A stretch of DNA of 64,000 bases from an uncultured Desulfatibacillum sp. (GCA_964427375.1 CAYRUF010000018.1:4691-68690), one strand, 5' to 3'. Positions 1 to 4,876 are shown, counted from the first letter of the stretch. Translations and numbers: made by a program. Notes: generated by a model not told the origin, from the sequence alone.

Positions 1-891
1 ATGGGCACGGAGATCCGCGAGACCATCCTGGAAGAGCTGGCAGCGGAAGTCCAGGCAATCAAGGCCAAACACGGGGTGGTTCCCGGCCTGGTGACCATCC
101 TGGTGGGGGAAAATCCGGCATCGGTGTCCTACGTGACGCTCAAAATCAAGACGGCCCACCGGCTGGGGTTCAAGGAAATTCAGGACAACCAGCCGGCCAC
201 GCTGTCCGAAAGCGATCTGCTGGCCCTGATCGATAAATACAACAGGGACGACTCGATCCACGGCATTTTGGTGCAGCTGCCGCTGCCCAAACAGGTCAAC
301 GAGAAGAAGGTGCTCAACGCGATCGATCCGGACAAGGACGTGGACGGCTTTCACCCCGTGAATGTCGGACGCCTGATGATCGGGGGCTCGGAGGTGAAAT
401 TCCCGCCCTGCACCCCGGCCGGCATCCAGGAGCTCATCGTGCGCTCCGGGGTTCCCACCAGCGGCGCCGAAGTGGTCGTGGTGGGGCGCTCCAACATCGT
501 CGGCAAGCCGATCGCCAACATGATGCTCCAGAAGGCCAAGGGCGCCAACGCGACGGTGACGGTGATTCATACCGGCACCAAGGACATGGCTTCGCACTGC
601 CAGCGGGCCGACATCCTGATCGTGGCCGCCGGCGTACCCGGCCTGGTGAAGCCGGAGTGGATCAAGCCGGGGGCCTGTGTGATCGACGTGGGCGTCAACC
701 GCGTCGGCGAGAAAGTCAGCGAAAAGACCGGCCAGAAGGTGGCCATCCTGAAAGGGGATGTCGACTTCGACGCCGCCAAGCAGGTTGCGGGCTGGATTAC
801 GCCGGTGCCGGGCGGGGTGGGGCCGATGACCATCACGATGCTGATGCAGAACACCCTGAAATCCTTGAAGTTCAAGCTCGGCATCGCTTGA
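1..891 (+). CDS. folD: Bifunctional 5,10-methylenetetrahydrofolate dehydrogenase / methenyl-THF cyclohydrolase FolD (5-prime end probably cut by window edge)
   Basis: ORF 1..891. It carries FolD-like motifs: VPGLVTILVGENPASVSYV, HGILVQLPLP, CTPAGIQELI, VVVVGRSNIVGKP, TPVPGGVGPMT. The usual ~10 N-terminal residues before this point are missing, so the true start may lie upstream of the window. Confidence 0.9.
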   Translation: MGTEIRETILEELAAEVQAIKAKHGVVPGLVTILVGENPASVSYVTLKIKTAHRLGFKEIQDNQPATLSESDLLALIDKYNRDDSIHGILVQLPLPKQVNEKKVLNAIDPDKDVDGFHPVNVGRLMIGGSEVKFPPCTPAGIQELIVRSGVPTSGAEVVVVGRSNIVGKPIANMMLQKAKGANATVTVIHTGTKDMASHCQRADILIVAAGVPGLVKPEWIKPGACVIDVGVNRVGEKVSEKTGQKVAILKGDVDFDAAKQVAGWITPVPGGVGPMTITMLMQNTLKSLKFKLGIA

Positions 892-939: not shown

Positions 940-969
940 TTGACAAGACCAGGCCCGGGTTTTTATAAG
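940..969 (+). promoter_or_regulatory. Sigma-70-type promoter candidate for the riboswitch/M23 peptidase transcript
   Basis: TTGACA at 940-945, a 17-18 nt spacer, then TTATAA/TATAAG at 963-969. It sits directly upstream of the riboswitch aptamer. Confidence 0.45.
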
Positions 970-980
970 AGCTCTGCTTT

Positions 981-1075
981 ACGTTGCGAAAAGGCAAAGT
1001 CACCGAAAGATGGCGGCGCAAAGCCACGGGTCTAAAGCCGTAATGGCCAGGATAGCCGGGCTGCCGATGTGCCGT
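981..1075 (+). promoter_or_regulatory. c-di-GMP-I (GEMM-I) riboswitch aptamer
   Basis: The sequence AAGGCAAAGUCACCGAAAGAUGGCGGCGCAAAGCCACGGGUCUAAAGCC...AGGAUAGCCGGGCUGCCGAUG matches the conserved GEMM-I blocks almost position by position, as remembered from the Vibrio Vc2 aptamer (GGCAAA, GAAA tetraloop, CGCAAAGCC, CGG-CUAAA, UAGC-GGG-U-CCGAUG). A P1 pairing is possible between 981-987 and 1071-1075. Confidence 0.8.
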
Positions 1076-1078
1076 GAC

Positions 1079-1112
1079 AGACCTTCGGGCGGCCGCGCCC
1101 GAAGGTCTTTTG
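1079..1112 (+). terminator. Intrinsic terminator / riboswitch expression platform
   Basis: An 11-bp stem pairs AGACCTTCGGG (1079-1089) with CCCGAAGGTCT (1098-1108), followed by TTTT. It lies between the aptamer and the M23 peptidase start codon. Confidence 0.6.
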
Positions 1113-1192
1113 GTTGGTGAAGCCAAGCAGCCCGAAATCGCGAAGCCGGGCGGCCGGACTCCGCGGGCCCCGGCGCCGAGAGGAACCGCATC

Positions 1193-2143
1193 ATGCGCAA
1201 AACGATTTCGCTGGTCGTCTTGACGAACTCCGGCGCGGCGGCGAAGCAGTTCCGTATTTCGCGGGGGACGCTGCGCGGGCTGGCCGTTCTCACGGCGGTT
1301 CTCTTCGGGATGAGCGGCTGGCTGATGTACGATTATCTCCGGTTGAAAAGCGCTGAGCGCCGCCTCGAGCAGCGCGACCAGGCGCTTTCCGGAACGCTCG
1401 CCAGCCAGCGCGACGAACTTCAGCTCCAGCGCCGGCAGATCAGCGACTTTTCATGCGAGATCAATGCGCTCAAGGAAAGGCTGCTGGCGCTCAACGAGTT
1501 CGAAAAAAAAATCCGGGTCATGGCCGACCTCGACAAGCGGCCGGACAGCGCCAACCTTTTCGGCGTGGGTGGGCCCATCCCCCGGGCGCTGGATCCCAAG
1601 ACGGCGCTCGGCGACCAGCGCGGCAGCCTGGTGCGCGAGATGCATTCCCAGGTGGATCAGTTGGCGTTGGCTGCCGTGAACCAGGAAGACCATTTCAAGG
1701 CCCTGGTCGCCCACATCGAAAAGCAGCGGGGCCTGTTGGCATCCACCCCCACCATCCGGCCGATCGACCCGGACGTGGAGCATCTGGTGACCTCCCGTTT
1801 CGAATATCGCCCGTCGCCCTTCACCAACGTGCGTGAGTTCCACAAGGGCTACGACATCTCCGCGCGGGAAGGCACCCCCATTTACGCCACCGCCGCCGGG
1901 ACGGTCACCTTCGCCGGCGACAAGGGGCTGCTCGGCAAGACCATCATCATCGACCACGGTTATGGCCTCACCACGACGTACGGACACTGCAGCCGGCTTC
2001 TGAAACTTCCAGGGGAGAAGGTGCGGCGCTGGGAAACCATCGCGCTGCTGGGCAATACCGGCCGCAGCACCGGGCCTCATGTGCATTACGAGGTGGCCCT
2101 CCACGGCGTCCAGGTCAACCCCGAAAAATACTTCCTGAACTGA
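1193..2143 (+). CDS. M23/LytM-family metallopeptidase with N-terminal membrane anchor and coiled-coil (EnvC/NlpD-like architecture)
   Basis: LytM catalytic motifs are present: HKGYDI (HxxxD) and GPHVHYEV (HxH). There is an N-terminal hydrophobic segment (LAVLTAVLFGMSGWLMY), a coiled-coil region, and a GAGAGGAA RBS before the ATG. Confidence 0.85.
   Translation: MRKTISLVVLTNSGAAAKQFRISRGTLRGLAVLTAVLFGMSGWLMYDYLRLKSAERRLEQRDQALSGTLASQRDELQLQRRQISDFSCEINALKERLLALNEFEKKIRVMADLDKRPDSANLFGVGGPIPRALDPKTALGDQRGSLVREMHSQVDQLALAAVNQEDHFKALVAHIEKQRGLLASTPTIRPIDPDVEHLVTSRFEYRPSPFTNVREFHKGYDISAREGTPIYATAAGTVTFAGDKGLLGKTIIIDHGYGLTTTYGHCSRLLKLPGEKVRRWETIALLGNTGRSTGPHVHYEVALHGVQVNPEKYFLN

Positions 2144-2350: not shown

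Positions 2351-4876
<2,526 letters not shown>

Follow-up and report, generated by a model that had tools for sequence, protein, structure and literature searches.

In the Vc2 riboswitch of the c-di-GMP-I class (GEMM-I, Rfam family RF01051), G20 and C92 recognise the two guanines of cyclic dimeric guanosine monophosphate (c-di-GMP) (PMC6140456). A guanine at position 20 goes with c-di-GMP and an adenine there with the GEMM-Ib aptamers that sense 3′,3′-cyclic GMP-AMP (cGAMP), and wild-type G20 Vc2 has picomolar affinity for c-di-GMP and binds cGAMP only at about 10 µM (PMC6140456). Two characterised relatives differ in their expression platforms: Cd1, the OFF switch of the C. difficile flgB operon, can form its aptamer and its terminator side by side, both of them competing with an antiterminator, whereas pilM, an ON switch, can form only one of the two at a time (PMC9262584). 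Riboswitches for another cyclic dinucleotide, cyclic dimeric adenosine monophosphate (c-di-AMP), precede genes of cell-wall hydrolases, such as that of a cell-wall-related peptidase in Corynebacterium glutamicum (PMC9960051). Here we describe a GEMM-I element upstream of an M23/LytM peptidase gene in a stretch of 64,000 nucleotides (nt) from an uncultured Desulfatibacillum sp. (GCA_964427375.1, CAYRUF010000018.1:4691–68690), which we call the window and whose own coordinates are used throughout.

In our reading, positions 940–1192 of the window comprise the promoter of a monocistronic M23 gene together with its 5′ leader, which carries a canonical GEMM-I riboswitch predicted to act as a transcriptional OFF switch; to this reading as a whole we give a probability of roughly 60%. 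The element resembles Vc2 and its class in its full-length model match, its two hairpins, its GAAA tetraloop, its equivalents of G20, A47 and C92, and its sense orientation within a 5′ leader; it differs in an invariant C·A mismatch in the first hairpin and in a P1 helix that is weak in the window's clade. With Cd1 it shares the coexistence of aptamer and terminator and a predicted antiterminator formed from an aptamer strand and the 5′ strand of the terminator (PMC9262584), although its expression platform is short, with 3 nt from P1 to the terminator. The Geobacter GEMM-Ib switches (pilM, Gs1761) have the same fold, belong to the same clan, come from a related phylum and likewise use a terminator-based platform, but they carry A20, act as ON switches and overlap aptamer with terminator, whereas the window has G993 and no such overlap.

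The RNA class is thus a known one, and the novelty, as far as the searchable literature goes, is the target gene: we found no M23 peptidoglycan endopeptidase among GEMM-I targets in searchable full-text articles, where the matches on C. difficile concern PPEP-1 and an unrelated small RNA. By analogy, the nearest conceptual precedent is the pairing of c-di-AMP riboswitches with hydrolases, in which RNAs of the ydaO/kimA type are cyclic-dinucleotide riboswitches in direct control of genes for peptidoglycan-cleaving enzymes (PMC9960051); they differ from the window in RNA class, in their ligand, c-di-AMP, and in the hydrolase families concerned, NlpC/P60 and Rpf.

Aptamer, terminator and their conservation

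Scanning the whole window with Rfam 15 returned c-di-GMP-I as the sole riboswitch match, at 983–1068 on the plus strand, with 77.7 bits (E = 1.5e-13 for the whole window), untruncated and covering model positions 1–87 of 87. The covariance-model search that a preliminary description of this locus had proposed as its test therefore came out positive by a wide margin over the gathering score of 35, and a permissive Rfam rescan of 880–1260 gave no further significant match. All of the conserved GEMM-I blocks quoted in that description were found in their places (Table 1). The GAAA loop and the consensus of the putative receptor region (GUCUAAAGCC...CAGGAU) align to RF01051 with high posterior probability.

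The aptamer is followed by an intrinsic terminator with a stem of 13 pairs, 9 of them G-C, and a 4-nt loop, and then by UUUUGGUUGGU; its hairpin has a folding energy of −26.9 kcal/mol (all folding reported here uses nearest-neighbour thermodynamics, with neither tertiary nor ligand terms). The GC-rich hairpin and U-run of the preliminary description are thus present, with a stem that counts 13 bp instead of the 11 bp given there. A terminator was found at all 19 loci that carry the riboswitch (see below), where the stems diverge widely between lineages, for example AGACCUUCGGGCG, GCUCCGGGUG and AACGCCUUGAGGU. That the riboswitch regulates by termination, as had been predicted, we judge to be very likely.

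The host assembly (4.63 Mb, 124 contigs) represents an uncultured Desulfobacterales lineage, and orthologues of its M23 protein are encoded in 38 of 41 related genomes. Of 24 other genomes of the genus, 12 have a GEMM-I element directly before the M23 gene and in its orientation, and an element upstream of M23 is also found in one genome of another family (G034) and in five more Desulfobacterales metagenome-assembled genomes (MAGs), whose M23 proteins are 52–55% identical. In total, promoter, aptamer, terminator and M23 gene occur together as one block at 19 loci, 18 of them in other Desulfobacterales genomes, and at every one the riboswitch unit adjoins and points toward the M23 orthologue. 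No GEMM-I was found near 20 distant M23 loci (Nitrospinota, Deferribacterales, Desulfuromonadales, NC10, Bacteriovoracaceae and others), and among the sampled loci the association is confined to Desulfobacterales.

Covariation was scored on an alignment of 14 leaders, each beginning at the inferred +1 and including the whole U-run. The RNAalifold consensus of these leaders closed the aptamer with a non-native GGC/GCC helix and was set aside, and for this reason the Rfam-defined aptamer pairs, together with the terminator, were scored instead. Standard pairs filled 90.5% of the cells, compared with 26–45% when the partners were slid by 1–3 columns; nine pairs showed compensatory change, five in the terminator and four in the aptamer, the latter in the second hairpin, and none of 500 shuffles equalled the observed covariation score. 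In most lineages outside the window's clade P1 is strong and covaries, as in UGCGGAUCG/CGAU..CGCA and UGCAAUUCG/CGAAAAUUUGCA. Within that clade the 5′ strand of P1 varies (ACGUUGCG, AAGUUUCG, AACAUACA) and its 3′ strand is fixed. We regard the riboswitch as real with near certainty.

Natural loss variants bear both on the arrangement of the unit and on whether it still functions. At 11 orthologous loci of the same genus no Rfam match was found upstream of the M23 gene, even with permissive filters. In one of these relatives (locus L007 in genome G015; CAZNAX010000049, a 'Desulfatibacillum sp.' MAG) about 190 nt are cleanly deleted: the gap opens within the first hairpin (...TCACCGAA) and closes shortly ahead of the ribosome-binding site, so that a TTGACA-N18-TATAAA promoter is joined directly to the M23 gene in a natural riboswitch-less allele. 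Another (L013 in G018) keeps only the 5′ half of the aptamer, its 3′ half being replaced by a long inserted hairpin (GTTGAAAAACAAG...CTTGTTTTTCAAC); this leader has neither a terminator nor an Rfam match and is a decayed switch. These two variants place the peptidase gene under this promoter and the switch within the gene's leader, and they show that some lineages can do without the switch. Loss or degradation in 11 genomes of the genus, together with the weak P1 of the window's own clade, would also fit a window element that is itself a decaying, non-functional relic; but its full-length model score is high, its terminator is intact, and the aptamer core is nearly invariant among the clade's loci (L003–L006) while the flanking leader sequence varies, so that we hold a relic to be extremely improbable.

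Four further riboswitch-less relatives (L021, L023, L024 and L025, in G019, G009, G020 and G016) have the shared promoter about 200 nt upstream of the M23 gene, followed by a different, mutually conserved, GC-rich leader that includes CCGGAGTCATCCCCCGGGATGATTCCATGTGCTGGCGCGGCCGTGAGCGGCCGCCGGCGG and has no Rfam match; this leader may represent a regulatory element of another kind, or else a small open reading frame (ORF) ahead of the gene.

Ligand specificity was read from the Rfam consensus alignment, which places G993, A1020 and C1064 at model positions 11, 38 and 83. We take these to be the equivalents of G20, the intercalating A47 and C92, a mapping that combines this alignment with the Vc2 numbering (PMC6140456) and the Vc2 sequence. 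The position of G20 is a G in 17 of the 19 orthologous switches, including all copies from the same genus, and because the window has G at 993 and not the adenine of GEMM-Ib we assign c-di-GMP as its ligand; the sequence indicates an aptamer that senses c-di-GMP rather than cGAMP. GEMM-Ib is common in Desulfobacterota, and two of the orthologous switches (L037 1156–1241 and L039 1078–1163, in the Desulfobacterales MAGs JASFGZ01 and JASFIU01) have A at this position (AGAGCAAAG), the signature of a cGAMP-sensing or bispecific GEMM-Ib, so that their M23 genes may answer to another cyclic dinucleotide. For the window, however, a response to cGAMP, or to both ligands, is very improbable, given G993, the G of its same-genus copies and the strong preference of G20 Vc2 for c-di-GMP noted above. 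The host genome encodes seven ORFs with a GGDEF domain and has only two GEMM-I elements, from which we conclude that c-di-GMP signalling is present and small in scale.

Alternative fold and predicted direction of switching

The aptamer, P1 included, finishes by 1075 and the terminator begins at 1079, which leaves a gap of 3 nt and no overlap, and the two folds can therefore coexist; as in Cd1, the downstream terminator (1079–1108) is compatible with a folded aptamer. Competition between the 3′ strand of P1 and the terminator, which the preliminary description had suggested looking for by folding, was not seen, and P1 was ruled out as the terminator's competitor because the two segments are disjoint.

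The same layout bears on the opposite direction of control, in which c-di-GMP would prevent termination and induce the M23 gene, as in GEMM switches of the Geobacter pilM or pgcA type. Many terminator-bearing GEMM-I switches of deltaproteobacteria are ON switches (see PMC9262584), and the terminator is part of every full-length minimum-free-energy (MFE) structure of the window leader, even when the aptamer is left unconstrained, so that termination could be the default state. An ON switch, however, requires aptamer and terminator to exclude each other (PMC9262584), and here they lie 3 nt apart and coexist. Nor was any extension of P1 into the terminator arm found inside the transcript: the one complementary segment, 970–976, which would make such an extension and hence ON control possible, precedes the inferred +1 and was rejected for that reason. 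We therefore consider ON control unlikely.

For the OFF switch that we favour, a candidate antiterminator emerged from folding the nascent RNA. At lengths 1075–1100, when the 5′ arm of the terminator is out and its 3′ arm is not, the MFE structure contains two new helices. Helix B pairs 1011–1020 (the 3′ strand of the first hairpin, the G-C pairs of the junction and A1020) with 1068–1079, and helix A pairs 999–1007 (GUC.CCGAA) with 1084–1093 (UUCGG..GGC). Judged by secondary structure alone, this alternative is favoured over the ligand-free aptamer by 8.2 kcal/mol in the window and by 3–14 kcal/mol across loci, a gap that high-affinity ligand binding and tertiary contacts could plausibly overcome. 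The switching strand of Cd1 is chiefly the 3′ strand of P1, whereas that predicted for the window is made up of the first hairpin and the junction.

Several comparisons with shuffled sequences support the two helices. Helix B has −14.6 kcal/mol, compared with −8.1 ± 2.7 kcal/mol for shuffled linkers (p about 0.02), and its need for the linker would explain why the linker is invariant in the window's clade although P1 is not maintained there. For helix A, 11 of 19 loci do better than shuffled sequences of matched composition (p ≤ 0.05). The motif GGUGA, an exact Watson-Crick complement of the aptamer's UCACC, is present in 12 of 19 terminators, with about 2.6% expected per locus; it sits where the 5′ arm meets the loop, in stems that are otherwise unlike one another, and the complementarity often reaches over the GAAA loop, as in CUUUC-A-GGUGAU. 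The nascent-RNA MFE is the alternative fold in 10 of 14 loci, and in nine of those ten its register is reached by only 0–11 of 200 shuffles; stepwise folds give the correct order of events. The first hairpin also carries a non-canonical C·A pair (GUCACC/GAUGGC) that is invariant in all 14 aligned leaders, and because of this mismatch the hairpin is a poorer partner for UCACC than the terminator arm is; a hairpin weakened in this way is what a switching strand would need.

The sequence of events that we propose would begin with transcription from about position 976. Binding of c-di-GMP to the nascent aptamer (983–1068) would lock the first hairpin and the junction (999–1020), leaving the 5′ arm of the downstream hairpin free, so that the 13-bp terminator could form and transcription would stop before the gene. 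Without ligand, helix B (1011–1020/1068–1079) would form and release 999–1007, which could then pair with 1084–1093 as helix A; the terminator would be transiently blocked, and RNA polymerase would read into the peptidase gene. High c-di-GMP, as in the sessile or biofilm state, would consequently mean less of the cell-wall-cleaving enzyme.

A number of observations weigh against this scheme, or against the reading of the locus as a whole. In full-length folds the terminator is always dominant, at −60.0 kcal/mol compared with −39.9 kcal/mol for the best terminator-free structure, and because of this dominance antitermination would have to be purely kinetic. Shuffling the terminator arms leaves the nascent RNA with an equally good total pairing energy (z about 0), GC-rich arms being usually able to pair with something. 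The window's own clade has a diverged GGGCGGC in place of GGUGA, its helix A is only marginal (p = 0.05–0.06 in L003 and L004), and its P1 duplex, at −5.8 kcal/mol, is not better than shuffles. The −10 hexamer of the window promoter lacks the usual final T. Finally, the 19 loci share descent, so that the motif counts are not independent. With these points taken into account, the combination of a Cd1-like layout and an antiterminator candidate leads us to predict an OFF switch, and we think it probable that c-di-GMP causes termination and represses the peptidase.

Two other pairings were considered and rejected. An antiterminator between GGGUCU (1028–1033) and AGACCU (1079–1084) is not conserved at the other loci, and pairing of the A-rich junction with the U-run is trivial and not regulatory.

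Table 1. Coordinates of the features of the riboswitch unit and of the neighbouring genes in the window.
Feature	Position	Strand	Basis or remark
Sigma-70-type promoter (−35 TTGACA 940–945, 18-nt spacer, −10 TATAAG 964–969)	940–969	+	Sequence and comparison
GEMM-I (c-di-GMP-I) aptamer	983–1068	+	Full-length RF01051 match and covariation
P1, 5′ strand	981–988	+	Weak pairing with 1065–1075
Block GGCAAA	993–998	+	Sequence
Aptamer junction pairs	G994–C1019, C995–G1018	+	RF01051 alignment
First aptamer hairpin	999–1004/1009–1014, GAAA loop 1005–1008	+	RF01051 alignment
GAAA loop of first hairpin	1005–1008	+	Sequence
Switching segment of aptamer (predicted)	999–1020	+	Nascent-RNA folding; computational prediction
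Block CGCAAAGCC	1017–1025	+	Sequence
Second aptamer hairpin	1022–1062	+	RF01051 alignment
Block CGGGUCUAAA	1027–1036	+	Sequence
Block UAGCCGGGCUGCCGAUG	1053–1069	+	Sequence
P1, 3′ strand and linker (also 3′ strand of predicted helix B)	1065–1078	+	Invariant in own clade (L003–L006)
Intrinsic terminator (13-bp stem 1079–1091/1096–1108, loop GCCG, U-run)	1079–1112	+	Present at all 19 loci
Shine-Dalgarno-like GAGAGGAA	1178–1185	+	7 nt before ATG; conserved in close relatives
M23/LytM peptidase gene (316 aa)	1193–2143	+	PF01551; 80 nt past terminator
folD	1–891		Flanking gene
secA	2351–4876		Flanking gene

The downstream peptidase and its promoter

The gene behind the terminator encodes a protein that matches PF01551 (Peptidase_M23) over residues 216–310 with 104.9 bits (cut-off 28.7, E = 2.6e-30), and its zinc-binding and catalytic residues H217xxxD221, H265 and H296xH298 are invariant in 29 orthologues, which bears out the M23 peptidase with intact HxxxD and HxH motifs reported in the preliminary description. 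The most hydrophobic 19-residue segment is 27–45. In an AlphaFold model (mean predicted local distance difference test score, pLDDT, 77.7) a short N-terminal beta-hairpin is followed by a helix (24–115) that starts with this hydrophobic segment, a disordered linker, a second helix (135–183) and the LytM domain (198–310), and the model makes a bitopic membrane protein with two long helices the probable architecture.

No specific NCBIfam model reaches its cut-off for the protein, and the best ones for the LytM domain are Pgp3, MepM, ShyA and DipM. Sequence matches in the PDB are to NMB0315/NGO1686, ShyA and Csd, and Foldseek returned the same set. Like MepM of E. coli, ShyA of V. cholerae, NMB0315/NGO1686 of Neisseria and Pgp3/Csd of Helicobacter/Campylobacter, the protein has a LytM domain with intact HxxxD and HxH, and it differs from MepM and ShyA in its N-terminal membrane anchor and two-helix region. 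The preliminary description had left a choice between a hydrolase and a hydrolase activator. With the activator EnvC the protein shares long helices before LytM, and full-length EnvC structures (8tzl_E, 6tpi_A) align in Foldseek over more than 330 columns and the whole length, at high root-mean-square deviation; but the EnvC/NlpD models score 42–45 bits against cut-offs of 270–311, and the window protein keeps the metal ligands and catalytic residues that are degenerate in the LytM domains of the EnvC/NlpD amidase activators. The likeness is therefore weaker to these activators than to active DD-endopeptidases, and sequence and model together make an active, membrane-tethered periplasmic peptidoglycan endopeptidase most likely.

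Upstream, the promoter proposed in the preliminary description, TTGACA-N17/18-TATAAG, is present with a spacer of 18 nt. A consensus scanner did not call it, because the scanner demands T at the last −10 position, where the window has G. Comparison with 13 orthologous leaders shows TTGACA and a spacer of 18 nt in every one, with TATAAA, TATAGT or TATGAT as the −10 element, and the promoter is kept in the riboswitch-less relatives L007, L021 and L023–L026; perfect TTGACA-N16–19-TA sites number 7 in the window, with 0.8 expected. From the position of the promoter, transcription would start near 976. Between the M23 gene and secA lie a terminator-like site (2201–2215) and a promoter-like site (2277–2304), and the riboswitch therefore appears to govern the M23 gene alone.

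The unit might instead produce a short autonomous RNA, an orphan c-di-GMP-binding transcript or a constitutive attenuator, with the M23 gene expressed mainly from elsewhere. The great stability of the terminator (−26.9 kcal/mol) would suit such an RNA, orphan GEMM-I elements are listed for C. difficile (PMC11477304), and a block containing TTGACA in four distant lineages (L035–L037 and L039) suggests a second promoter there. In the window, however, the scanner found no promoter-like site between 1109 and 1192, nor did it call the second block of the distant lineages as a promoter; the unit faces and adjoins the orthologous M23 gene at 19 loci, and the L007 deletion fuses the promoter directly to the ribosome-binding site. 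An autonomous RNA is in our view improbable.

In the distant lineages the block in question reads CTTGACAC(G/A)GATATT...TGTGATAC; it lies, conserved, between the terminator and the M23 start codon, resembles a second promoter and is absent from the window. On the other side of the unit, no terminator was found at 889–940, between the folD stop codon (889–891) and the riboswitch promoter, and read-through from folD into the riboswitch leader is possible.

Other GEMM-I elements and possible biological meaning

The second GEMM-I element of the host genome lies on contig C55 (24217–24307, minus strand; 1501–1591 in locus L001) and scores 87.7 bits. It stands upstream of a gene for a large secreted FN3-like repeat protein, and many genomes of the genus share it. 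Its expression platform may be translational, since a terminator is lacking and a CCUUCC segment is able to pair with the Shine-Dalgarno sequence AGGAAGG.

In a related genome (G036, contig C114, locus L113), six consecutive RF01051 matches of 55–63 bits each occupy 690–1206 on the plus strand, about 520 nt, directly upstream of a gene for a small, secreted-looking protein (ATG near 1242). In this tandem array all six GEMM-I-like aptamers have the junction pair flipped (GCCAAAC...GACGGAAAG) and a first loop that is not of the GNRA type. The largest GEMM-I tandem array otherwise known to us is a triple one, in Bacillus thuringiensis.

Any Rfam-based annotation would flag the riboswitch of the window; the added value of the present analysis lies in the comparative picture and in the target gene, an endopeptidase with intact catalytic residues that appears to stand under direct c-di-GMP control in several uncultured lineages related to sulfate reducers. 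The clade supplies natural controls in the form of a clean deletion, a half-decayed aptamer and A20 variants, and antiterminator design could take the compact platform with its conserved UCACC/GGUGA motif as a model. Should the switch indeed be OFF, it would offer a simple route from the level of the second messenger to the cleavage of the wall, in parallel with the control of other hydrolase families by c-di-AMP riboswitches.

More broadly, and only tentatively, we propose that a Cd1-like OFF riboswitch lets c-di-GMP directly repress a conserved, membrane-anchored DD-endopeptidase in one clade of Desulfobacterales, and that cGAMP may take the place of c-di-GMP in the two sister lineages with A20. 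If true, this would be a direct link at the RNA level from c-di-GMP to peptidoglycan remodelling, and in the sessile state these bacteria would cleave their cell wall less, which would alter how the cells separate, form chains or are shaped.

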